NCBI GenBank assembly: GCA_964548225.1
Contig: CAZJQP010000005.1
Span: 20,453 to 84,452 of the forward strand
Origin: an uncultured Blastocatellaceae bacterium
Lineage (GTDB): Bacteria > Acidobacteriota > Blastocatellia > Pyrinomonadales > Pyrinomonadaceae
Length of the DNA: 64,000 nt
Reading direction: 5' to 3'
Shown in pieces: positions 7,954-18,876 of this stretch. The notes under the pieces were generated by a model. It worked only from the letters and a program-made list of their open reading frames with translations. It was not told where the DNA came from and ran no database searches. Position numbers and translations under genes: made by a program. Positions within the stretch are counted from its first letter, which is position 1. The number at the start of each line of letters is the position of its first letter.

Positions 7954-8357
7954 TTTGTTTTCTCCTGTAGATTGGCGTAAAAGTCGCCTAAATCAAGGAA
8001 CAGACAAATTTGTCTCAACGGCAGTTATTTGTTTCCGTGATATTAATTTGCTTTGTTCACTACTTCATCCATCTAATCCTCATTGTTCTTTTAGATTTTC
8101 CTCCGCGAGAAATCTCAGCATCAGCTATTCTGTCTTCATTTTTATAAAAAACTACTTTTCTCGGCTTTCCATTTTTCTCCGGTTTTCGACGCTGTCCGCA
8201 TCTACTTCACTCCTCCATAAACTCGCTTCTTCCAAACTCGAATGCTTCTAAAAATCTCGCCAACGCATCAACGCGCCTGTTTCGATAATCTGCAAAATGC
8301 AGGATTGTTTGATACAAAGCAAATTGACGATTTGCTCTGCCGCCGTCACTCATATAA

Positions 8358-10223
8358 TTAGCGAATCGGTTCACGCAAAATAATTTCCGCCGTTTCACGC
8401 GCTAATTTTGCCGCCGCCGGATGCGTTTCGTTTAATTGCGCGACTTGTTTTAAGGCTTCGCCCGTGCGCGAGAGAAGCCGCACTAAATCACCTTCTTCCG
8501 CCTTTGTATAGAAAACCAAATCTTGCCAATCACCACCGCTCGCCCAAAATTCCGCCGCCGCCGCCGCCGAGAGATTTATTTCGTCCGCCGGAGCTACGCC
8601 CGCTTTGAATTCAACGCCGGAAACTTCGTAGATTATATTTTCAAATTCGGTCAGAATATCCAAAATTTTATCGGAAAGATGAAGTTCGCCGTAATTTCTA
8701 TCGGAATCGGCGGCAAGTGAAGCCATCAGTGCGGCAATATGTTTTGTTTCCAAATTTTCAAAAAGTCCGTGCCGCAGAGCTTCGCCGACAAGCAATGGTC
8801 GGTCAACGCGCACATCCGCGAGCCATTTGCCTTTTGCAGTAACTCTCTGCGCGGTAAAATCGAGATAACCGAAATGATTCAAAACCCGTGCGCGGCGTTC
8901 AAAAGGCAACCATATTTCGTTTCGTAAAATTTCTACATCACGCACCGTTTTTTCCAAAAATTCGGCATCTGAAACCGTTTCCCACAAAAGCTGATGTGCT
9001 TGTCTTTTGGCATCTTCGCTCAAATTTGCGGGTAGAAGTGTTTCAATTGCAGCAGTTAAAATCTCGACTGCTTCGTCCATATCGTCTTTGTTTGCAGAAA
9101 GTTTCGGTTCGCTCAAAGCCGGATTTTTGCCTTCGTGAATTTCGTCAAAAGCAAGGTCGAGCGAGCGTTCCTCCAAACGATATTCCTTTGCATAAACGCG
9201 CCCGATGTGCGGCAGAGAAAGCGTCGCGCCTTGTCCGTCTTCGCGCATTGCGACAACCTTTTCACCGAAAACATTCAGCACAAGAAAAAAGCGTTTCGAG
9301 TTGCGGCTTTTCGTAACGATTCTGCCGATTTGCACGTTTTCTCTGAGCCAATTCGTGCGAACTTCCGCCCGCGTATTCGGCAGTTTTTCCTGCAAACGTT
9401 GACGCGCATTTGCCAATCTCTCAAAACCTCGCACCGTGTCAATTGTCAAACCGAATTCGTTATTTTCGAGCTTCTTTACGATAGCTTTTCGACGCTTTTC
9501 TGTCTGCTTTTCAATCTGCGAAATTTGCTGCGCCGTTTCACGAAACGCAAAACTTTTTTCGGCGATTTCGCGCACCTGTGAGAAATTTCCGAAAGCGTCT
9601 AAAAGATTTAGCAAACTCGTGTAAGTTGCACGAAATTGACTGTTTAACGCATCGGGCGGCGATTTTAAAAGTTGTGCAATCTTTGGTGGATTTTGAAATT
9701 GTGCCGGAGCTAGAATAACAAAACCGACGTTATCTTTCCCACGCCGTCCGGCGCGTCCGGTCATTTGTTGCAATTCCGACGCTTGCAACGAACGCCAACC
9801 GTCATTTCCGCGTGTGTCGGCGTTTGAAATTACAACGGTTCGCGCCGGAAAATCAACTCCTGCCGCTACGGTCGAAGTCGCAAAAATCGCATTCAGCAAA
9901 CCTTTTGACATCATTTTTTCAATCAAAAGTTTCCAAGCCGGAATATGCCCTGCGTGATGCGCGGCAATTCCCGCACGAATCAGTATTTTCCGATGTTTAT
10001 GAGTTTTTATCTCAGGATTTTCCGCCAAATATTCTTCATAAATCTTCTGCCGTTCTTCCTGCTTGTCAATATCGGTTTTCTGTGATTTATCTGCGGCAAC
10101 TTCCGTCGCGGCTTCGTCGCACTTTCGGCGCGTCGGCATAAAAACAATCGCCGGCAAAAGGTTGAAATTTCTCAGCGCAGTAATTAATTTCGGCGGCGGA
10201 ATTTCGGGTAATTTGAATCTCAT
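8358..10223 (-). pseudogene. 5'-truncated Ski2-like / DEAD-DEAH superfamily-2 helicase: only RecA-like domain 2 and the C-terminal region are present; domain 1 with motifs I-III is absent
   Basis: Begins directly at the domain-2 linker (LLPAIVFMPTRRKCDE). Has motif V/VI-like TSTVAAGVDFP and QMTGRAGRRG but no GxGKT or DExH. Only 112 bp separate its start from the divergent sigma-factor gene. Confidence 0.5.
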
Positions 10224-10235
10224 CTAAAAATATTA

Positions 10236-10299
10236 AACCACGAAATAACGCGAAGAAACACTAAAAAAATCAATTTCTTTTCGTGCTAATTCGTGGTTT
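10236..10299. repeat. Hairpin repeat element E1 (AACCACGAAA...ACGCGAA...TTTTCGTG...TTCGTGGTTT), the left flank of the sigma/anti-sigma/CHAT module
   Basis: Homologous to 16214-16266 in the same orientation. It contains the inverted repeat AACCACGAA / TTCGTGGTT. Confidence 0.6.
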
Positions 10300-10335
10300 A
10301 ATATCTGATGTAAAATCTCTCGACCAAAAAAGGCG

Positions 10336-11166
10336 TTGATGCAAAAAACAAACACAGCGCAAGGCGTAACGGATACGGATTTGCTGAAGTTATTTCAAGA
10401 TAATCCGCAACACGCTTGGAGTTTGTTTTGCGATAAATATTCGGATTTTATTTATACAATTTTACGCCGTGCGGGGTTTGATTATGACGAGGCAATGGAG
10501 CGTTTCGTATATGTTTTTGAGAAACTGTGCGAACAAGATTTTCGCCGATTTAAGACGATAAAATATGTCGGAAACGACGGTGATTTAACACCTTGGTTGC
10601 GGCAGGTTCTGAAGAACTTATGCGTAAATTGGGCTTGGAGCGTGGACGGACGCAAACGGCTTTTCGGGTTTGTTGCGGAAATGCCGCCGCGTGAACAGAG
10701 AGTTTTCCAATTATATTTTTGGCAAGGAAACACGCCGTTTGAAATTTATGAAAATTTGCGGCTCGAACACGATAAAACGGTCGAAGTAGGCGATGTTTTT
10801 GATGCGTTGGAAACAATTTTTGCGCGTTTGAGTGAGAAAAAACTCTGGCGTTTGATGAGCAATTTGAATCGAATGCGAAAAACTCTTTCGCTCGATTTGG
10901 AAAACGAAGACAGCAATTTTTTTATCGAACCGATTGACGAAAACGCTCTTGACGCAGAAGAAAATTTGCTGAAAAAAGAATCTTTCGGGCAGTTAAAATT
11001 GGCGTTCGAAACGCTTTCGGCGCGGGAAAAACTAGTCGTTCAATTTCGCTATGAAGAAACGATGACGCTCGGCGAAATCGCCGAAATGCTCGGTTGGGAA
11101 GAGCGCGAAACAACGAACTTGCACAAATCGGCGATTTACAAATTGCGAAAATTTTTCGCCGTCTGA
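10336..11166 (+). CDS. ECF-type RNA polymerase sigma factor (sigma-70 family, regions 2 and 4) with an approximately 70-aa insert
   Basis: Region 2-like segment DTDLL...AWSLF...IYTILRR...DEAME. Region 4 HTH LSAREKLVVQFRYEETMTLGEIAEMLGWEERETTNLHKSAIYKLRK. Confidence 0.8.
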   Translation: MMQKTNTAQGVTDTDLLKLFQDNPQHAWSLFCDKYSDFIYTILRRAGFDYDEAMERFVYVFEKLCEQDFRRFKTIKYVGNDGDLTPWLRQVLKNLCVNWAWSVDGRKRLFGFVAEMPPREQRVFQLYFWQGNTPFEIYENLRLEHDKTVEVGDVFDALETIFARLSEKKLWRLMSNLNRMRKTLSLDLENEDSNFFIEPIDENALDAEENLLKKESFGQLKLAFETLSAREKLVVQFRYEETMTLGEIAEMLGWEERETTNLHKSAIYKLRKFFAV

Positions 11167-11224
11167 GTGGTTTTATATGTTTTGGAAAATTGGGTGAGGA
11201 AAGTAAAAGGTAAAAAGTAAAAAA

Positions 11225-11908
11225 ATGTCGGAAAAAAACTGTCCAACTCAAGATAATTTACGCGAATTTCTTGTGGGCGAAATGCCGCCGAGTGAAAAAG
11301 AAACGCTCGAACTGCATTTGGCGGATTGCGCGGATTGTCGGCAAAATTTGGTCGCGGTTTTTGTCGCAAAAGCGGAGGAAACCGAAACTTTCAAAACTCC
11401 GAAACCTTTGACCGAAACCATCAAAAATCTGCCTGCAAGCAAATCGAAAGCAAATTCCCTCTCTTTTTTTTCATTTGCGTGGCTCGGAAAATATCGTTTG
11501 CAGACGGCTTTTGCCGCCATTTTGCTTGTCTGTTTCGGGTTCGCCGGATTTTATTTTCTGCGAAATCAAACGACTTCAAATTCGGACGATGTTTTGCGAA
11601 ACGGCGCGGCAAACAAAGACTTAATTAAACTTCTTGCTCCTGAAGATAGTGTTGTTGTCAAAGGCTCTTTTGTTGAATTTGAATGGGAAAAAGTTTCGGA
11701 TGCAAGTTCTTACATTCTAATTATTTCCGATGAAAAAGGCGATATTATTTTTCAAGAGCAAACCAAACAAACCAAGTTCAATTTCGGACGGGCGTATCCA
11801 TCCAAAAGAGTAAATAAGCAAGACAAAAGTTTTTGGTATGTTCAGGCAAAACTTATTGACGGAAAAATTATAGAATCCACCCCGAGAAAGATTTTTTTTG
11901 AGTATTAA
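11225..11908 (+). CDS. Zinc-finger (ZAS / zf-HC2) anti-sigma factor with one TM helix and an extracytoplasmic C-terminal domain
   Basis: H-x3-C-x2-C motif (HLADCADCRQ) near the N-terminus. TM AFAAILLVCFGFAGFYFL. Lies immediately downstream of the ECF sigma gene. Confidence 0.75.
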   Translation: MSEKNCPTQDNLREFLVGEMPPSEKETLELHLADCADCRQNLVAVFVAKAEETETFKTPKPLTETIKNLPASKSKANSLSFFSFAWLGKYRLQTAFAAILLVCFGFAGFYFLRNQTTSNSDDVLRNGAANKDLIKLLAPEDSVVVKGSFVEFEWEKVSDASSYILIISDEKGDIIFQEQTKQTKFNFGRAYPSKRVNKQDKSFWYVQAKLIDGKIIESTPRKIFFEY

Positions 11909-11913
11909 AGTTA

Positions 11914-14688
11914 GTGAAAAACTCAGCCTCTAAATATTTTTGGCTGTTTTGTTGTTTAGCAACTTTAGCGGTGGCGGGATATTTTTCCGCCCCATTTATA
12001 GGTGAAAAACTCTATCAAAAAGGCTTACAAGCAAAAAAAGAGTGGCAATTGACATCTGCCATCAGCTATTTTTTGTGGGCGGAGAAATTAAATTCGGATA
12101 AAACAAAAGTCCGAATTGAAAAAGCCGTTTGTTTTCAGATGCTTGGGGAATTTATAAAATCTCAAACCGAATTTGAAAAACTTCTCGCCGAATCCGTCGT
12201 AAATCAAAAATTACATTCTCGAATTTTAAATGCCAACGGAGTCAATCTGTTCAGCCAAAATTTGCCTGACAAGGCTTTGGAAAGTCATCAGGAAGCCTTA
12301 AAAATTGCCCGTTTGATTGGCGATAAAAAACTCGAAGCGCAAATTTTAGTTAATTTAAGCCGTGTTCTTTATCACGCCAAAGGAAAATTTGATGAAGCCG
12401 AAAAACATCTCGAAAACGCTTTGCAAATCGGGCGTGAACTGAATGACGAACAAATTATTGCCGATTCAATGCGAAATCTCGGCGTGGTTTTGTGGTGGGG
12501 AAAAGGCGAATTAGACCGTCCGCTGAATGATTTTTACAAACCTGCGCTCGAACTTTACCGCAAAAATCAAGACAAACGCGGCGAAGCGACGATGCTCAGC
12601 AATATTAGCTTAATTTATTCGTTCAAAGGTGATTTTTACGAATATCTGAAACTGCAAAATGAAAGTCTGCAAATCCGTGAAAACATCAAAGACCAAGCCG
12701 GATTGAGCGAATCTTACAGGGCTTTCGGTGCGGCATATTTATCAGTCAGAAATATCAAAAAAGCGCGTGAATATCTGCAAAAATCGGTTGCGCTTTCGGA
12801 AAAAATCGGCTTTCGGCTGACGCAAAACGAAGCCGAAACTTATTTGGCAGGCGTTTATGCCGAACTCGGCGAACACGATGAAGCCATTGAACTTTTTCAA
12901 AAAATTTATGAGCGCGAGAAAAACAGTCCCGAACTTGCCAAAAACCGTTTAAGCTCAATCGGATATTGCTATTTACTCAAAGAGGAATTTGAAAATGCCC
13001 GCCAAATTTTTGAGCAAGTTTTGGAAATGGAACTCAAAAACGAGAGAAAAGATATTCGAACCTTGTTGGCGATTTATGTTTTTTTGGGCGAAACTTTTAT
13101 GCGTTTGGGGCAAACGGAAAAAGCAAAAGAGGTTTTGCAAAAAGCCGAAAATCTTTACAAAGAGCAACGAGGCGAAATAATTCAAGGGCTTTTGAGTTAT
13201 GCCGCAACACAAGCCGAATTTGCGTTTGAACAAAAAGATACGGAAAAATCACGCCGTTTTTTACGCGAAGCCGCCGAAAATGAATTGAGTCTTTTTGCCC
13301 TGAGCGGCACAAATTTGATTACTCATCCGCTTGCACGAGATTATGACCGAATTTTCTTACTTTTGCTTGAAAAATTGGATGATACGAAACTTGCTTTTCG
13401 TTTTTTGGAACAACGCCGGTATCGTTCATTCCGCAATTTTATTGTGCAATCGAGTAGTAAAAATAACACTTCCGCGCAAACGGGCAACGGCGAAAAAAAA
13501 GCTCTGGCGGAGATTGAAAAATTGAAAAACCATTCAAAAAATAACGACGGCGTAGAACTCAAAGAAAGACTCCAAAAGGCTTACGGCGATTATGAAAATG
13601 CGGTTTTGAAAGAGCAATTTTCCAAAGAAATTCAGAAAGCGATTACCACCGCGCAACCCGTTGACTTAAACACGGCGGGACAAAATCTGGACGAAAAAAC
13701 GGCTTTGATTGAATATGTTTTTGCGGGCGAAAAAGTTTTTGCGATAGTGTTGACAAAAAATGATTTACGGCATTTTTTATTACCTGTTTCGCGCTCGAAT
13801 TTGCGGAATAAAACACGACTTCTGAATGCTTCGATTTTTGCCAAAATCGAATCTGACGATTGGCAACCGATTGCCCGAAGTTTGCGCGAGAATTTGCTTG
13901 AACCGCTTGAAAAATCGGACGTTTTGAAAGATAAAAATCGTCTGGCGATTGTGCCTTTCGGCGTTTTGCACGATTTACCGTTTGCCGTCCTGATAAGCAA
14001 TGAAAATCGTTTTTTGATTGAAGATTACACTTTGTTTTTTCCGCTGTCGGCAACATTTCTGCAAAGAAAAAATTCCCATTCCGGGACAAAAAAAATGGTT
14101 AGTTTCGGCATCAATCACACGGAAAATTTGCCAGATTTGAAGTTTGCGGTTGAAGAATCAAAAGCGGTGGCAGAAATCTTCGCGGGCGAAGCAAAAGTTG
14201 AAACGCAAGCAACCGAAACCGAATTCAAAAACTCCATCTCAAAAACCACGCATCTGCATCTGGCAACCCACGCTGTTGCCGAAGCGGAAATGCCTCTTTT
14301 TTCAAGACTTCTCTTAAAATCCGCCGAAAAAGATGACGGAAATTTGATGGGGCGCGAGATTTTTGAAATTGGAATCGAGACGGATTTGGTAACTATTGCG
14401 GCTTGCGAAGGTGCGAAAAGTTTTTCCGCTGACTCGGAAGATTTAATCGAAATTGACCGCATCGGGCTAACCGAAGCCTTTCTCCACGCCGGTTCAAACA
14501 GTGTTTTAGCTAGTCTTGCACCAATCAGCGATGCCGCAACCGTTGAATTTATGAAGGATTTTTACATAAATCTCAAAGAAAAAGACAAAACCGAATCTCT
14601 TGCACAATCTCAACGAAAAATGCTTCACGGGAAATTCAAACATCCGCGTTTTTGGTCGCCGTTTATTTTGGTTGGCTCTGATAAGTAA
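11914..14688 (+). CDS. TPR-repeat plus CHAT-domain (caspase-like peptidase) protein with an N-terminal signal-anchor
   Basis: Many TPR units (e.g. ALESHQEALKIARLIGDKKLEAQILVNLSRVLYHAKGKFDEAEKHLENALQIGREL). C-terminal CHAT signature His (HLHLATHAV) and Cys (LVTIAACEGA). Its start is 6 nt after the anti-sigma stop. Confidence 0.8.
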   Translation: MKNSASKYFWLFCCLATLAVAGYFSAPFIGEKLYQKGLQAKKEWQLTSAISYFLWAEKLNSDKTKVRIEKAVCFQMLGEFIKSQTEFEKLLAESVVNQKLHSRILNANGVNLFSQNLPDKALESHQEALKIARLIGDKKLEAQILVNLSRVLYHAKGKFDEAEKHLENALQIGRELNDEQIIADSMRNLGVVLWWGKGELDRPLNDFYKPALELYRKNQDKRGEATMLSNISLIYSFKGDFYEYLKLQNESLQIRENIKDQAGLSESYRAFGAAYLSVRNIKKAREYLQKSVALSEKIGFRLTQNEAETYLAGVYAELGEHDEAIELFQKIYEREKNSPELAKNRLSSIGYCYLLKEEFENARQIFEQVLEMELKNERKDIRTLLAIYVFLGETFMRLGQTEKAKEVLQKAENLYKEQRGEIIQGLLSYAATQAEFAFEQKDTEKSRRFLREAAENELSLFALSGTNLITHPLARDYDRIFLLLLEKLDDTKLAFRFLEQRRYRSFRNFIVQSSSKNNTSAQTGNGEKKALAEIEKLKNHSKNNDGVELKERLQKAYGDYENAVLKEQFSKEIQKAITTAQPVDLNTAGQNLDEKTALIEYVFAGEKVFAIVLTKNDLRHFLLPVSRSNLRNKTRLLNASIFAKIESDDWQPIARSLRENLLEPLEKSDVLKDKNRLAIVPFGVLHDLPFAVLISNENRFLIEDYTLFFPLSATFLQRKNSHSGTKKMVSFGINHTENLPDLKFAVEESKAVAEIFAGEAKVETQATETEFKNSISKTTHLHLATHAVAEAEMPLFSRLLLKSAEKDDGNLMGREIFEIGIETDLVTIAACEGAKSFSADSEDLIEIDRIGLTEAFLHAGSNSVLASLAPISDAATVEFMKDFYINLKEKDKTESLAQSQRKMLHGKFKHPRFWSPFILVGSDK

Positions 14689-14690
14689 AG

Positions 14691-14727
14691 TTCAGATTTG
14701 CCTCTTTAGGCATAACTCTGAACTTTT
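14691..14727 (+). terminator. REP-like element copy B (GTTCAGAtTT...AACTCTGAAC) followed by TTTTTTT; likely terminator of the CHAT gene
   Basis: Imperfect member of the GTTCAGAGTT/AACTCTGAAC hairpin family. Followed by a T-run. Confidence 0.55.
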
Positions 14728-14788
14728 TTTCGTCAAATTCTCCAAACTTGAAAAATTGTCTGTTGGGTAAAATTCGGAGGAGAATTTT

Positions 14789-15145
14789 ATGAACAAAAAA
14801 TCTATCAGCATTGTTTTATTGGTTGGTCTGTTGGTTTTGGCGTTTACGCCCATCAATGTTTTGGCGGGAACGGCTTCGGCTTCGGCGACGGCAAAAGCGG
14901 GTGACGATTGCGGGGAAATCGAAAAACGCGAAGGGCAAAACACCGGCGCAATGAACATCGGAATGGTCAAGGTCAATGGCAAAGAGTTGAAAAAAGGAAT
15001 TGATTACACAGTTGAAAACGACGGCAGCACACGACCGAAAATTAAATTCAAAACGCCTTTGGCAAAAGATGATTCAGTAAGCGTTACGTTGTCAACCGTA
15101 AAAAGAGGCGATTTTACGGTAAATCTGACTTTGAGCAATTGTTGA
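14789..15145 (+). CDS. Small secreted hypothetical protein
   Basis: Signal peptide SIVLLVGLLVLAFTPINVLAG. RBS-like ggaggag upstream. Confidence 0.5.
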   Translation: MNKKSISIVLLVGLLVLAFTPINVLAGTASASATAKAGDDCGEIEKREGQNTGAMNIGMVKVNGKELKKGIDYTVENDGSTRPKIKFKTPLAKDDSVSVTLSTVKRGDFTVNLTLSNC

Positions 15146-15537
15146 TGGAGAACGCAAGAATGAAAAATTCTAGTTTTATGAAAAAAGTCTATGTTTTAAT
15201 AACGGCGTTTTCTTTTATCGTAGCTTTTTCGGCGTTTGATTTGCTCGCGCAAAAAAGCAATACGAAACGATATGTCCTGCTCAAACGAAACGAGCGGAAA
15301 AACAGTTACAAAACCGTTTCGGAAAATGGCGAAATCATTTTTGAAGCCGAGAATGTGGAAGACCCAAAAGATGGCGAACTTCTTCGCGGCAAGAAAAAAT
15401 TGGAATATCGCTGTGAACTAGGTCAAATTCCATTTATTAAAGAATTGCTTTTTTCAAACGGGCGTTCCACTCGGCAAAAAGTCGAGTGTCTGGTGCTGAT
15501 TACGCCGCGAATTATTATTCAGGAAGAGGAAAATTAA
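15139..15537 (+). CDS. Small secreted hypothetical protein (start may be an internal Met)
   Basis: Signal peptide VYVLITAFSFIVAFSAFDLLAQ. Overlaps the previous gene by 7 nt. Confidence 0.45.
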   Translation: MLMENARMKNSSFMKKVYVLITAFSFIVAFSAFDLLAQKSNTKRYVLLKRNERKNSYKTVSENGEIIFEAENVEDPKDGELLRGKKKLEYRCELGQIPFIKELLFSNGRSTRQKVECLVLITPRIIIQEEEN

Positions 15538-15550
15538 GGAGAAAACATTT

Positions 15551-16180
15551 ATGCCGAATGAAACATTTGAGGAACGGGTTCGCAATCGTATTAAGGAACT
15601 GACGGATTATTACATCCAAAATCAAGATTTGATTCGCGCTCCTTTGTTTCGCCGTTTTTGCAATCCTGTCCGATGGGAAACCGAGTGGCGCGAACTTTAT
15701 CGGGTAATTGAAGAATATGAAAAATATGACGGCGAGATGGGCAATCGTTTAATAAAAGTCGAAGGTTTTAATTATCAGCCTTTGCCTTGGACACCGTTTT
15801 TGCAACAATACGAAAAAAACGCGCTTGAAAAACTCATTTCCAAACGGTGCAATTCGCACGAACGGCAAATTATCGCCAACGACATCAAATACGAAATGAA
15901 TCGGCGAATAAATCGCGTTCCAAACGCCAAGCGCACCGCCGCTAATCTTCAAAAAGCCGGACAACGCGGCGAAGAAGAAGGACTTTTGAACGCCTTCGGT
16001 GTCGAGTATCGCGGCGAATATGATCTTGCGCTCACCGAAGCTGACCGCCAATGGCACAAAAGCGGAATCGAATATTTTGTCGAATTTGCAATTATCGAAT
16101 GCGGCATAATTGACGTTGACGCAATAAAAAGAGAAGAAACCCGCAAGGTTAAACCGAAACTTTCCGGTTGGGGAATGTAA
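15551..16180 (+). CDS. Hypothetical cytoplasmic protein
   Basis: Long ORF with an RBS (aggagaaaac). No recognised motif. Confidence 0.5.
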   Translation: MPNETFEERVRNRIKELTDYYIQNQDLIRAPLFRRFCNPVRWETEWRELYRVIEEYEKYDGEMGNRLIKVEGFNYQPLPWTPFLQQYEKNALEKLISKRCNSHERQIIANDIKYEMNRRINRVPNAKRTAANLQKAGQRGEEEGLLNAFGVEYRGEYDLALTEADRQWHKSGIEYFVEFAIIECGIIDVDAIKREETRKVKPKLSGWGM

Positions 16181-16213
16181 TCCGCGATTGCGTGAATAAA
16201 TACGGATAATTTT

Positions 16214-16266
16214 AACCACGAAAAGACGCGAAACGAATTGCTTCTTTTCGTGTCTTTTCGTGGTTT
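16214..16266. repeat. Hairpin repeat element E2 (AACCACGAAAAGACGCGAA...TTTTCGTGTCTTTTCGTGGTTT), the right flank of the module; a 17-bp stem with one mismatch
   Basis: Homologous to E1 at 10236-10299. Probable terminator of the 15551-16180 gene. Confidence 0.6.
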
Positions 16267-16282
16267 CTGGTATATTCAAACA

Positions 16283-16663
16283 ATGAATCAGACCCTTGTC
16301 CTTTGGCATCAATTTGTCGCATCGCCGAACGCCGAAATTCTGCACGAAATTCTCGCGGACGACGTGCAATTTCACTCGCCTTTTATCTGGAAACCGAAAG
16401 ACGGAAAAGCCGTAACGACGCATATTTTAATGACCGTTACGCAGGTTTTCGAGAACTTCCGCTATATCCGCGAAATCATTGAAGAAAATAATTTTTGCCT
16501 CGAATTTGAAGCCAGCATCGGCGATTTGACACTTCGCGGCGTTGATTTGATTTCGCTAAATGATGACGGAAAAATTATTGATTTTGAAGTAATGATTCGT
16601 CCCGCAAATGCTCTGCAAACGCTCGGAATAGAAATGGGCAAGCGTTTGAATTTACAAGGTTAA
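16283..16663 (+). CDS. NTF2/SnoaL-like small protein (start taken at MNQTL)
   Basis: About 125 aa with a pattern consistent with the alpha+beta cone fold. Weak call. Confidence 0.4.
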   Translation: MNQTLVLWHQFVASPNAEILHEILADDVQFHSPFIWKPKDGKAVTTHILMTVTQVFENFRYIREIIEENNFCLEFEASIGDLTLRGVDLISLNDDGKIIDFEVMIRPANALQTLGIEMGKRLNLQG

Positions 16664-16755
16664 GATTTTACGGCAATAAAATTTTTATCTTTTTGCATCT
16701 AAAGTTTGTAAATTAACGAATACAAACTTAACTAACCTACGAAACAGGAAAAATT

Positions 16756-17421
16756 ATGCTTAAAGATACAACGTCAGTTACAACAATTAATGCGTTTCCG
16801 TTTGCCGGAAGTTTTTCGACCGTCAAGTCTGTCGAAAAAGTTGCCGAAGCCCGTTTGCCAACCGAATTTGGCGAATTTCGTATTGCGGGTTACAAATCTC
16901 TAACAAGCGATGAAGAATTTGTCTGTGTTTTCAAAGGCGATTTGCACGAAAACGCCGCAATTCCCGTGCGTATTCATTCGCAATGTTTGACGGGCGACGT
17001 TTTTCACTCGACAAAATGCGATTGCGGAGCGCAACTGCAAAGCGCGATGGAAACCATCGAAAAAGAAGGTCGCGGCGTAATCGTCTATCAACATCAAGAA
17101 GGTCGCGGCATTGGAATCATTAACAAAATTCGTGCTTACGCCCTGCAAGATAAAGGCGCGGACACCATCGAAGCAAATCTGCGACTCGGACTCGATGTTG
17201 ATTTGCGCGAATACGACCAATGCGTCGAAATCCTGAAAGATTTGGGTGTGCGTAAAGTCAAAGCATTATCAAATAATCCCGACAAACTCCGCGCAATGCG
17301 AAACGGCGGTTTGGAAATCATCGAGCGCGTCCCGATTGAATTCGAACCATCAAAAGACACGCAAAAATATTTGAGTGTCAAGAAATTTCAGATGGGACAT
17401 CTTTTGAGTTTAGTGAATTAA
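16756..17421 (+). CDS. ribA: GTP cyclohydrolase II (riboflavin biosynthesis)
   Basis: [23 protein letters not shown] zinc-binding Cys motif and [27 protein letters not shown]. Confidence 0.9.
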
Positions 17422-17472
17422 ATTTTCCTCCTCAAAAAAACTAAAAGATGCGGTATTGATTTATCGCATCTT

Positions 17473-18876
17473 TTAGTTCTTTAAAGCATTCAAAATCTTC
17501 TCGTGAATACCGCCGAAACCGCCGTTTGACATTACGGCAACGACATCGTTTTCGCGCAATTCGGGTGCGAGATGGGCGACAATCGAATCGGCATCGGGCA
17601 AGCAGAAAGCCGTCTTTCCTTGCGCGTTGATTTGTTCGACTAACTCCTCGACATTCAAAACTTTGCCCAATTCCGATGCTTTTTGCGTGTTATAAACTCC
17701 GGCGATGATGACGTAATCGGCGTATTCAAAAGCGTTGCGGTAAGGTTCTTGAAAAACCGCCAGCCGCGACGACCACGAACGCGGCTCAAAAACCGCAATC
17801 AAACGCTTGCCCGCATATTTCATCCGCAGAGCTTTCAAAGTTTCTTCAACGGCGGTCGGATGATGCGCGAAATCGTCAATCACCGTAACGCCGCGTTCGA
17901 TTCCGCGAATTTCGACGCGCCTTTTCACCGATTTGAATGTATCAAACGCTTCTTGAATTTTGTCTTGAGAAATTCCCCAAGCGTCCGCCGCGATGATGAC
18001 GGCAAGACAATTTCGCACGTTAAATTCGCCGATTAAATCGGTTTCAAATTCGCCCCAAAATTCGTTTTCGCGGAAGATTTTAAATTTTGTTCTGCCCGAA
18101 AAATCAATCTCACGCGCTTGCCATTTTGCCTCGTCCGAAGTTCCGAAAGTTTCAATGTTTGTAAAAAGTTTGCCGCGCATTTCTTCCAAAACTTCTTTCG
18201 CAACAGGCGAATCAATGCCGACAATTAACGAGCCGTTTGACGGCACAAGATTCATCAGACGCGAAAACTGATATTTGATTTCCCAAAGGTCGCGGTAAAT
18301 GTCAGCGTGGTCAAATTCGACGTTATTGACAATCGCAATTTCGGGCAAATAGTGCATAAATTTCGGCTTTTTATCAAAATAAGCCGTGTCGTATTCGTCG
18401 CCTTCAATGACGAAATAATCGCTTTCCGCCACACGAAACGACGCGCCGAAATTCTGCACAATTCCCCCAACCAAAAACGACGGATTCAGCCCACCAACCT
18501 CGCAAACCCAACTCGCAATACTCGTCGTCGTCGTCTTCCCGTGCGTTCCCGCAACGACCAGCGAACGCCGTCCGCGAATAAATTCTTCCTTAACAATCTC
18601 CGCCTGCGAACGATACAAAAGTTTGCGATTCAAAACCTCTTCAAGCTCCGCATTTCCACGCGAAATCGCATTTCCGACAATCGTGCAATCCGCGCCGATG
18701 TCCGCATTTTCCGCTTTGTAACCGTTCAAAATCTCAATCCCAAGTTGTTCCAACTGCGTTGACATCGGCGGATAAACATTCTGGTCTGAACCCGTAACTT
18801 TGTGTCCGCGCGTCTGCAACATTCCCGCCAACGAAGCCATCGCCGTTCCGCAAATTCCGATTAAGTGATAGTGCAT
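17473..18876 (-). CDS. mpl: UDP-N-acetylmuramate:L-alanyl-gamma-D-glutamyl-meso-diaminopimelate ligase (Mpl, Mur ligase family)
   Basis: N-terminus HLIGICGTAMASLAGML...GHKVTGSDQNVYPPMSTQLE closely resembles E. coli Mpl. Mur ligase ATP-binding GTHGKTTTT. Confidence 0.8.
   Translation of the reverse strand: MHYHLIGICGTAMASLAGMLQTRGHKVTGSDQNVYPPMSTQLEQLGIEILNGYKAENADIGADCTIVGNAISRGNAELEEVLNRKLLYRSQAEIVKEEFIRGRRSLVVAGTHGKTTTTSIASWVCEVGGLNPSFLVGGIVQNFGASFRVAESDYFVIEGDEYDTAYFDKKPKFMHYLPEIAIVNNVEFDHADIYRDLWEIKYQFSRLMNLVPSNGSLIVGIDSPVAKEVLEEMRGKLFTNIETFGTSDEAKWQAREIDFSGRTKFKIFRENEFWGEFETDLIGEFNVRNCLAVIIAADAWGISQDKIQEAFDTFKSVKRRVEIRGIERGVTVIDDFAHHPTAVEETLKALRMKYAGKRLIAVFEPRSWSSRLAVFQEPYRNAFEYADYVIIAGVYNTQKASELGKVLNVEELVEQINAQGKTAFCLPDADSIVAHLAPELRENDVVAVMSNGGFGGIHEKILNALKN

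Follow-up and report, generated by a model that had tools for sequence, protein, structure and literature searches.

A conserved sigma, anti-sigma and TPR-CHAT gene triad with a candidate site-1 cleavage motif in Acidobacteriota and other bacteria

A stretch of 64,000 nucleotides (nt) from an uncultured Blastocatellaceae bacterium (contig CAZJQP010000005.1; the whole stretch is called the window below) carries a tight run of genes on the forward strand (10336-16180, +): a sigma factor, a membrane-spanning anti-sigma factor and a protein composed of TPR repeats and a CHAT domain (TPR-CHAT), followed by three small open reading frames (ORFs). Here, we analyze this gene triad and a conserved motif next to the transmembrane (TM) helix of the anti-sigma factor, at which the TPR-CHAT protein might act as a site-1 protease. 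The anti-sigma factor and TPR-CHAT are encoded by separate ORFs in different reading frames with a gap of 5 nt, and the split into two ORFs is likewise found in all related loci. The three genes and their features are as follows (aa, amino acids; AF2, AlphaFold2 model; pLDDT, predicted local distance difference test).

10336..11166, + strand: sigma-70-family factor, 276 aa (Pfam Sigma70_r4, TIGR02937, synteny)
10648-10776 and 10981-11109, + strand: sigma4-like duplicated segments of the sigma factor (hhalign)
11225..11908, + strand: single-pass anti-sigma factor, 227 aa (zf-HC2 match; AF2 mean pLDDT 71.6; synteny)
11240..11341, + strand: zinc-binding anti-sigma (ZAS) domain, predicted cytoplasmic, with Cys6 and His31-x3-Cys35-x2-Cys38 (codons verified)
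11495..11563, + strand: TM helix of the anti-sigma factor, residues 91-113 (AF2 helix; hydropathy)
11582..11602, + strand: juxtamembrane motif S120-D-D-V-L-R125 before N126, candidate cleavage site (conservation; low pLDDT)
11615..11899, + strand: Ig/FN3-like beta-sandwich of the anti-sigma factor, predicted extracytoplasmic, residues 131-225 (AF2 pLDDT 84-93)
11914..14688, + strand: TPR-CHAT protein, 924 aa, GTG start (Pfam; AF2; Foldseek)
11932..11994, + strand: N-terminal signal-anchor or cleavable signal peptide of TPR-CHAT, residues 7-27 (hydropathy; positional conservation; charge of the N-terminal flank)
11995..13683, + strand: TPR-like alpha-solenoid with ~13 helical hairpins, residues 28-590 (Pfam; model helices H7-H591)
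13864..14679, + strand: CHAT domain, caspase-like, clan CD, residues 651-922 (PF12770)
14269-14271, 14404-14406 and 14530-14532, + strand: His786, Cys831 and Asp873, respectively (codons verified)

The order sigma, anti-sigma, TPR-CHAT on the same strand was found in 20 loci by tblastn of the window proteins against the related loci. CHAT identity was 38-62% for the triads of Pyrinomonadaceae, Blastocatellia and Chloracidobacterium and 25-28% for those of Chitinophagales, Rhodothermales, Ignavibacteria and another member of the Bacteroidota; the triad is thus present in at least four named lineages and, in addition, on unclassified high-GC metagenome contigs. At one locus (L020) the sigma/anti-sigma pair is divergently oriented. 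The search was also performed from the anti-sigma side, where a TPR or TPR-CHAT gene comes next in every full-length relative with sufficient downstream sequence (L030, L031 and L035); most other matches of this metagenome scan (alignment A2) consisted of the generic HLAxCxxC zinc motif only and were disregarded. The recurrence of the same order in 20 loci and the outcome of the search from the anti-sigma side indicate that the triad is a conserved unit. Genes further downstream vary between loci while TPR-CHAT stays adjacent across lineages, and it is highly probable that TPR-CHAT is a functional partner of the sigma/anti-sigma pair. Operon structure is deduced from spacing and synteny only, because consensus scans for promoters and terminators (10100-16800) returned sites no more frequently than in shuffled sequence and were thus uninformative. 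An autoregulatory promoter motif was not seen by eye upstream of the sigma genes, where the regions are too divergent. One metagenome-assembled genome (BC1.216) contains two paralogous copies of the triad on different contigs (L003 and L013).

The anti-sigma factor matches zf-HC2 (PF13490) at residues 9-39 (E=2.7e-6, 27.8 bits against a cut-off of 22.2), and residues 9-52 form a three-helix ZAS bundle in the AF2 model. Its sole hydrophobic segment comprises residues 94-112 (hydropathy KD19 = 2.16), with K/R on the N-terminal side and acidic residues on the C-terminal side. These flanking charges, and the need of the ZAS domain to meet the sigma factor, indicate an orientation with the N-terminus in the cytoplasm. 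ZAS class I anti-sigma factors bind and inhibit their sigma factors, and we infer the same for the protein studied here. The part outside the membrane is predicted to comprise 114 residues including the folded beta-sandwich, so that the arrangement read from the sequence by the original prediction, i.e. a zf-HC2 N-terminus, a single TM helix and an outside domain of about 110 aa, agrees with Pfam, hydropathy and the AF2 model. Foldseek matches of the beta-sandwich were CopC, Fn3 and Ig domains, which makes it a generic Ig/FN3-like fold. A profile search against 1.84 billion representatives returned 6480 matches at E<=1e-3, many of which are giant proteins of 1000-6000 aa with 6-27 tandem copies; the one repeat protein inspected (P0181) begins with a lipoprotein-type signal. 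There is no dedicated Pfam family for the beta-sandwich, and the repeat-protein matches scatter over Ig/FN3-type models. Judged by these relatives, the outer domain of the anti-sigma factor is an FN3/Ig-type repeat module.

Between the TM helix and the beta-sandwich lies a tether (residues 114-128) which is modeled with pLDDT <50. An alignment of 28 anti-sigma sequences across phyla has a mean column identity of 34%, and no more than eight of its columns are invariant: the zinc ligands H31, C35 and C38, R125 in the tether, and P139, F152, Y163 and W204 in the beta-sandwich. R125, located 10-19 residues past the TM helix, is the sole invariant residue beyond the zinc ligands and the core of the beta-sandwich. 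When 37 orthologs were compared, the arginine was present in 37/37, the preceding residue (P2) was L/F/V/M/W in 37/37 and the P4 residue was D/E in 30/37. An independent set of 34 full-length library cluster representatives gave the same picture, with [DE]-x-[LFVMWI]-R in 32/34 and a hydrophobic residue followed by Arg in 34/34; here, the motif was always located 12-19 residues past the TM helix and directly ahead of the beta-sandwich. The window sequence S-D-D-V-L-R, followed by N, fits the separase recognition pattern (S/D/E)xExxR in having an acidic P4 and an Arg at P1. By its conservation and position, the [D/E]-x-hydrophobic-Arg motif looks like a candidate cleavage site for TPR-CHAT. Cleavage behind R125 would shorten the outer part to a stub of ~12 residues, a length compatible with entry into a site-2 protease.

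The TPR-CHAT protein matches the Pfam CHAT family (PF12770) at residues 651-922 over the complete profile (1-289 of 289; E=2.5e-54, 185.1 bits against a cut-off of 24), and TPR families (TPR_12, TPR_MalT and related ones) match at about residues 120-455. Its AF2 model (pLDDT 85.8, predicted TM-score (pTM) 0.81) consists of a long first helix containing the anchor, ~13 hairpins and an alpha/beta CHAT domain. The top Foldseek matches are the anti-sigma factor DdvA (8ROT, 8RW5), Craspase Csx29 and human separase, with E-values from 1e-14 to 1e-12. The His/Cys dyad which had been noticed in the sequence is present in the motifs HLHLATH786AV and IAAC831EGA, and both residues are invariant in 25 orthologs and in 22 sequences across several phyla. 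From the invariant dyad and the full coverage of the Pfam profile, the CHAT domain is predicted to be an active enzyme. In the phmmer alignment, H786, C831 and D873 correspond to H862 and C907, which form the catalytic dyad of DdvA, and to D943. All 22 CHAT domains compared have Asp873 (Cys+42); at the aligned position, the Scalindua Craspase, which cuts after Leu or Met, has a Ser. In human separase, D2070 presumably lies at Cys+41, counted from Cys2029, which we take to be the catalytic cysteine. Separase binds the P1 Arg of its (S/D/E)xExxR sites by an invariant Asp, D2070 in the human and D2151 in the C. thermophilum enzyme (PMC10317155). Asp873 may thus be the counterpart of this Arg-binding Asp and is a candidate specificity residue.

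Cleavage at the tether would require TPR-CHAT to reside in the same compartment as the outer part of the anti-sigma factor. The N-terminus of TPR-CHAT reads MKNSASKYFWLFCCLATLAVAGYF and contains a hydrophobic segment at residues 11-29 (KD19 = 1.89). Among the relatives analyzed (24 full-length orthologs at 36-94% identity; 27 genomic loci), the position of this segment is kept in essentially all orthologs and its sequence is not, with a hydropathy of 2.0-3.4 over 17 residues. A conserved position in the absence of a conserved sequence is the behavior expected of a targeting or anchor segment. The N-terminal flank carries a net positive charge (+2 to +5) in addition to the free amino terminus, and the C-terminal flank is usually less positive or acidic. 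In distant relatives a lipoprotein-type signal takes the place of the anchor, namely ILSC in a member of the Bacteroidota (L025, 5761-) and LAAAC (L031, 2333-), GAAAC (L030, 2090-) and an SSTC-type signal (L035, 864-) on high-GC metagenome contigs. A family of cytoplasmic proteins would hardly be expected to use two independent kinds of export signal. The assigned GTG start is supported by the N-terminus, which is conserved over its whole length at the amino-acid level in P0003 and P0007. The segment is possibly a stable anchor or a signal peptide cleaved at AVA/G (residues 19-21). On these grounds TPR-CHAT is very probably extracytoplasmic. Hence the anchor with its positive N-terminal flank, as originally described, was recovered and is kept in orthologs, and the placement of the CHAT domain on the side of the outer anti-sigma domain is supported at the level of prediction by the anchor, the flanking charges, the relatives with a lipobox and the periplasmic location of DdvA; the lipoprotein-type signal of P0181, whose repeats are related to the anti-sigma beta-sandwich, is in line with a shared compartment.

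A sister contig (L077) offers a strain-level view of the same locus. It is 98.6-98.9% identical to the window at the nucleotide level over window positions 8012-11194 and 12116-18000, while the 920 bp in between represent a different allele. The variable stretch and the amino-acid identities between the window and L077 are given below.

11195..12115, + strand: hypervariable cassette, made up of the anti-sigma gene plus ~67 codons at the start of TPR-CHAT (compared with L077 3183-4202)
Sigma factor: 99.3% identity
Anti-sigma factor, whole protein: 45% identity
Anti-sigma factor, ZAS domain: 67% identity
Anti-sigma factor, TM helix: 48% identity
Anti-sigma factor, beta-sandwich: 31% identity
TPR-CHAT, first two 30-aa segments (residues 1-60): 20% and 53% identity
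TPR-CHAT, remainder: about 98% identity

The SDDVLRN motif is identical in both alleles of the cassette. The TPR-CHAT N-terminus of the nearest outgroup (P0002) is of the L077 type, indicating that the window appears to be the recombinant. The exchange is consistent with a single sensor unit that evolves fast and whose parts, namely the anti-sigma factor and the anchor and first helices of TPR-CHAT, are adapted to each other. The breakpoints may simply mark where conservation resumes.

The sigma factor at the head of the triad is atypical. Its Sigma70_r4 match is clear (residues 223-272, E=3.8e-14), as is TIGR02937 at residues 175-272, and its true start is likely the ATG at 10339. A sigma2-like N-terminus is followed by an internal sigma4-like insert (residues 105-147) and the C-terminal sigma4; hhalign aligned residues 105-147 to residues 216-258 with a probability of 96%, and both the duplication and the length of ~256-285 aa are kept in all sigma orthologs. 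Pfam Sigma70_r2 gave no match in the sigma factor, even at E<=10. Against the PDB, a weak match to the sigma2 domain of a sigma factor of the extracytoplasmic function (ECF) type was obtained (E=0.22), and the best matches of the C-terminal half were WhiG and FliA. ECF (group 4) factors consist only of sigma2 and sigma4 and are about 170-220 aa long, in contrast to the 276 aa with a duplication found here. The designation ECF given to the protein by the original prediction therefore applies loosely: the sigma4 domain is clear, whereas the canonical ECF form is not borne out.

Downstream of TPR-CHAT the gene run continues with three small ORFs.

14789-15145, + strand: small ORF orf4, 118 aa (hydrophobic N-terminus)
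15139-15537, + strand: small ORF orf5, 132 aa (hydrophobic N-terminus)
15551-16180, + strand: third small ORF

The hydrophobic N-terminal segments of orf4 and orf5 are signal-like, and homologs of orf4/orf5 lie downstream of the CHAT gene in L002 (8900-11895), L003, L004, L005, L009, L014, L018, L022 and L023. These secreted families possibly constitute the regulon of the sigma factor. A secretin-like motif, ECLVLITPRIIIQEE, forms the C-terminal end of the orf5 type and gives a weak match to Pfam Secretin (E=1e-4), and in L009 and L014 the orf5-type module forms the C-terminus of secreted proteins several hundred residues long. PADLOC returned no defense match in the module and the downstream ORFs except for a generic TPR match. 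On the other side, an ORF of 621 aa on the reverse strand (8358-10223, -) abuts the sigma gene, which leaves no space for an N-terminal ATPase core. Of a Ski2-like helicase it retains the C-terminal portion alone (Helicase_C, DSHCT), with HamB-like PADLOC matches over residues 25-280. The arrangement in L077 is the same, and the ORF may be what remains of a truncated gene or the scar of an insertion.

Among the known systems, DdvA is the closest. This anti-sigma factor of Myxococcus has been solved as a single ZAS-TM-TPR-CHAT polypeptide with a periplasmic TPR-CHAT part (Bernal-Bernal et al., 2024; PMC11506125). DdvA lacking TPR-CHAT becomes a substrate of RseP, and trans-autoproteolysis by CHAT was proposed in 2024 as the site-1 step of the DdvA/DdvS pair (PMC11506125). 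A CHAT enzyme acting as site-1 protease on an anti-sigma factor, which the original prediction had called undescribed, had thus already been put forward. The new elements here are the division of the predicted periplasmic system into two proteins, the broad distribution of this form and a specific candidate site of cleavage; literature searches gave no description of a split anti-sigma plus TPR-CHAT module. The module shares with DdvA an anti-sigma domain at the N-terminus that binds zinc, a single TM helix, a flexible linker and a TPR-CHAT of the separase/craspase type with a His-Cys dyad, including the LATH and AACEG motifs and an Asp beyond the Cys-proximal strand; DdvA is also the best Foldseek match (E=1.5e-14), and phmmer with the single sequence recovered no other CHAT chain. 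Unlike DdvA, the anti-sigma factor and TPR-CHAT are two membrane proteins, the anti-sigma factor has its own Ig/FN3-like domain and the sigma factor is longer and atypical. Sequence similarity is weak (phmmer E ~1e-3, ~13% identity over the Foldseek alignment). DdvA lacks a three-helix motif in its CHAT domain. Neither CBASS or CRISPR genes close by nor a PADLOC defense match were found, and a role as a DdvA-like defense regulator was dropped since PADLOC gave no defense signature in the module. The module is thus set apart from the DdvA type, because it is not one polypeptide and has no defense-island context. Fusions of the DdvA type have been reported only in Myxococcota and one Comamonas species (PMC11506125), whereas the split form occurs in Acidobacteriota, Bacteroidota, Rhodothermales and Ignavibacteria.

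In Craspase, Cas7-11 together with the TPR-CHAT protein Csx29 cleaves Csx30 and frees the ECF sigma factor RpoE (PMC10028731), with cuts after Leu or Met (PMC11506125). The TPR-CHAT fold is shared (Csx29 Foldseek E ~4e-14; hmmsearch E ~2e-14), and in both cases TPR-CHAT would cut a protein that sequesters a sigma factor. Craspase is cytoplasmic, RNA-activated and CRISPR-associated, whereas the proteins studied here are predicted to be membrane-bound, and Cas7-11/gRAMP, Csx30/Csx31 or cas neighbors were not found in the window or in the related loci. Separase likewise combines a TPR-like solenoid with a caspase-like domain (Foldseek E ~2e-13), and the candidate site with its acidic P4 and Arg P1 resembles a separase site. 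In contrast to TPR-CHAT, separase (family C50) is a eukaryotic, nuclear/cytoplasmic enzyme regulated by securin and CDK, and sequence homology between the two was undetectable by hidden Markov models (HMMs). As in classical regulated intramembrane proteolysis (RseA with DegS and RseP; RsiV, RsiW and RsgI), the anti-sigma factor is predicted to be a single-pass protein with the N-terminus inside, and a juxtamembrane cut would license a site-2 protease. To our knowledge, site-1 cleavage is otherwise carried out by serine proteases (DegS, PrsW-type, signal peptidase) or by autoproteolytic domains, whereas the candidate described here is a caspase-clan cysteine protease that is dedicated and encoded along with its putative substrate. 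Genes for CHAT, subtilase and carboxypeptidase proteins are located near the sigma gene in ECF54, for which proteolytic control has been suggested (PMC8999054). ECF54 is actinobacterial and lacks an anti-sigma factor, whereas here the gene of a ZAS anti-sigma factor lies between the sigma and CHAT genes.

The observations can be combined in the following mechanism. The cytoplasmic zinc-binding domain of the anti-sigma factor would hold the sigma factor at the membrane. The anti-sigma factor would span the membrane once and continue outside with a flexible tether of ~17 residues and the Ig/FN3-like beta-sandwich. Co-transcribed TPR-CHAT would be exported and stay attached through the N-terminal anchor (in other lineages, through a lipid anchor), and would thereby share a compartment with the tether. 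Activation of CHAT would come from outside the cytoplasm, probably through a protein ligand that the TPR solenoid or the beta-sandwich binds, and CHAT would then cut the tether after Arg125, with Asp873 reading the separase-like [D/E]xxR site. The remaining stub of ~12 residues would become a substrate of a site-2 intramembrane protease, and the released sigma factor would switch on its own operon and the adjacent genes of small secreted proteins. Computation established the domains and the conserved order of the genes. It further showed that the dyad, Asp873 and the Arg motif are conserved, that the fold resembles those of DdvA, separase and Craspase, and which topology is predicted; from these we infer the actual location of the proteins, the cleavage and its site, site-2 processing, the signal and the regulon. 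Circumstantially, the invariant tether motif, the invariant Asp873 and the gene linkage across phyla make the site-1 role plausible, and the fusion in DdvA of what are two proteins here provides Rosetta-stone support for the link between the anti-sigma factor and TPR-CHAT. We tentatively assign a probability of roughly 0.45 to TPR-CHAT being the site-1 protease that cuts the anti-sigma factor at R125.

Several points weigh against this assignment. The DdvA precedent is itself a hypothesis, as the variants H862A and C907A had no phenotype and autoproteolysis was not seen under the conditions tested (PMC11506125). The invariant Arg could instead serve for docking, act as a pseudosubstrate residue or pack on the beta-sandwich, and the low pLDDT of the tether is no proof of disorder. 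The equivalence of Asp873 with the separase Asp is based on spacing and the DdvA alignment, without a superposition at the residue level, and the W/P-x-x-D motif is common across CHAT domains and hence not specific to this family. One Pyrinomonadaceae TPR-CHAT (L006, 3740-8865; 42% identity) with intact anchor and dyad has no adjacent sigma/anti-sigma pair and is instead divergent to a gene whose product is a membrane protein that combines FHA and trypsin-like protease domains. Finally, a six-frame motif search of the 64-kb window gave no M50 site-2 protease, the gene of which need not be nearby.

These points bear differently on the alternatives. Second in rank, and in our judgment rather unlikely, TPR-CHAT would be a periplasmic partner that does not cleave the anti-sigma factor: the [D/E]x-hydrophobic-R tether would be a securin-like pseudosubstrate or docking motif which keeps CHAT inactive or reports its occupancy to the cytoplasm, the true CHAT substrates would be other extracytoplasmic proteins (small secreted or incoming foreign ones), and the sigma factor would be released by a conformational change or by a different site-1 protease. 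This explanation draws on the same linkage and shared compartment as cleavage at R125 does, and it accommodates the recurrence of the orf4/orf5 secreted families downstream as well as the fact that a single cassette carried both the anti-sigma gene and the CHAT N-terminus in the exchange, a hint at a stable physical complex. A pseudosubstrate is also what keeps separase inactive (PMC10317155), and the catalytic mutants of DdvA repress normally (PMC11506125). Yet the pseudosubstrates in securin have a hydrophobic P1 residue, and securin becomes a substrate once an Arg is placed at P1 (PMC10317155), whereas the Arg is invariant here; moreover, the motif is placed exactly where a site-1 cut would leave a short stub. 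In orf4 and orf5, a conserved hydrophobic-Arg motif was not found, although no search aimed at it was made.

It is improbable that TPR-CHAT is a mere output of the system, i.e. a gene transcribed by the sigma factor along with those of the secreted proteins and without control over the anti-sigma factor. Targets of ECF-type factors often adjoin the sigma/anti-sigma pair, and synteny alone cannot separate a regulator from a target (PMC7826278); in addition, no promoter or terminator signal was seen between the genes, where the scans were uninformative, and the L006 ortholog occurs without the pair. However, TPR-CHAT is always adjacent in at least four named lineages and the high-GC contigs while other downstream genes vary, DdvA is a natural fusion of both functions, and this explanation leaves the invariant tether motif and the two-gene cassette unaccounted for. 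Last in rank, and very improbable, is a cytoplasmic CHAT domain, in which case the hydrophobic stretch would be an anchor with the N-terminus outside or no membrane segment at all, and TPR-CHAT would act on the sigma or anti-sigma factor in the cytoplasm as in Craspase. Separase and the TPR-CHAT proteins of Craspase are indeed cytoplasmic (PMC11506125), and the K/R counts on both flanks of the segment are sometimes alike. This is opposed by the N-terminal tail with its 2-5 K/R and free amino terminus facing a usually less positive or acidic C-terminal flank, by the lipobox signals of relatives, which make sense for exported proteins only, by the periplasmic location of DdvA as the nearest structural relative and by the position of the invariant candidate site outside the TM helix of the anti-sigma factor.

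Taking cleavage at R125 as the preferred explanation, we consider it possible, though less probable than not, that the triad represents a widespread, previously unrecognized system. In it, a dedicated, membrane-tethered, periplasmic, separase-like protease would serve as the site-1 enzyme and cut the invariant [D/E]-x-hydrophobic-Arg site about 12-19 residues outside the membrane, and the CHAT N-terminus together with the beta-sandwich would make up a hypervariable sensor cassette exchanged between strains. If this holds true, regulated intramembrane proteolysis would have its first site-1 protease of the caspase clan, and the hypervariable cassette would be what is expected of a sensor in an arms race, e.g. 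against proteins of phages or competitors. The idea raised for DdvA is hard to test, as protease and substrate form one polypeptide and the family is seemingly confined to Myxococcota. Here, enzyme and substrate are separate proteins, which makes trans-cleavage assays in vitro straightforward, and the R125/N126 bond and D873 provide a precise, falsifiable candidate site and a candidate specificity residue. CHAT-linked control of sigma factors would be extended to at least four named bacterial lineages and the high-GC metagenome contigs, and the results would assign a function to part of the large and mostly uncharacterized pool of bacterial TPR-CHAT proteins.

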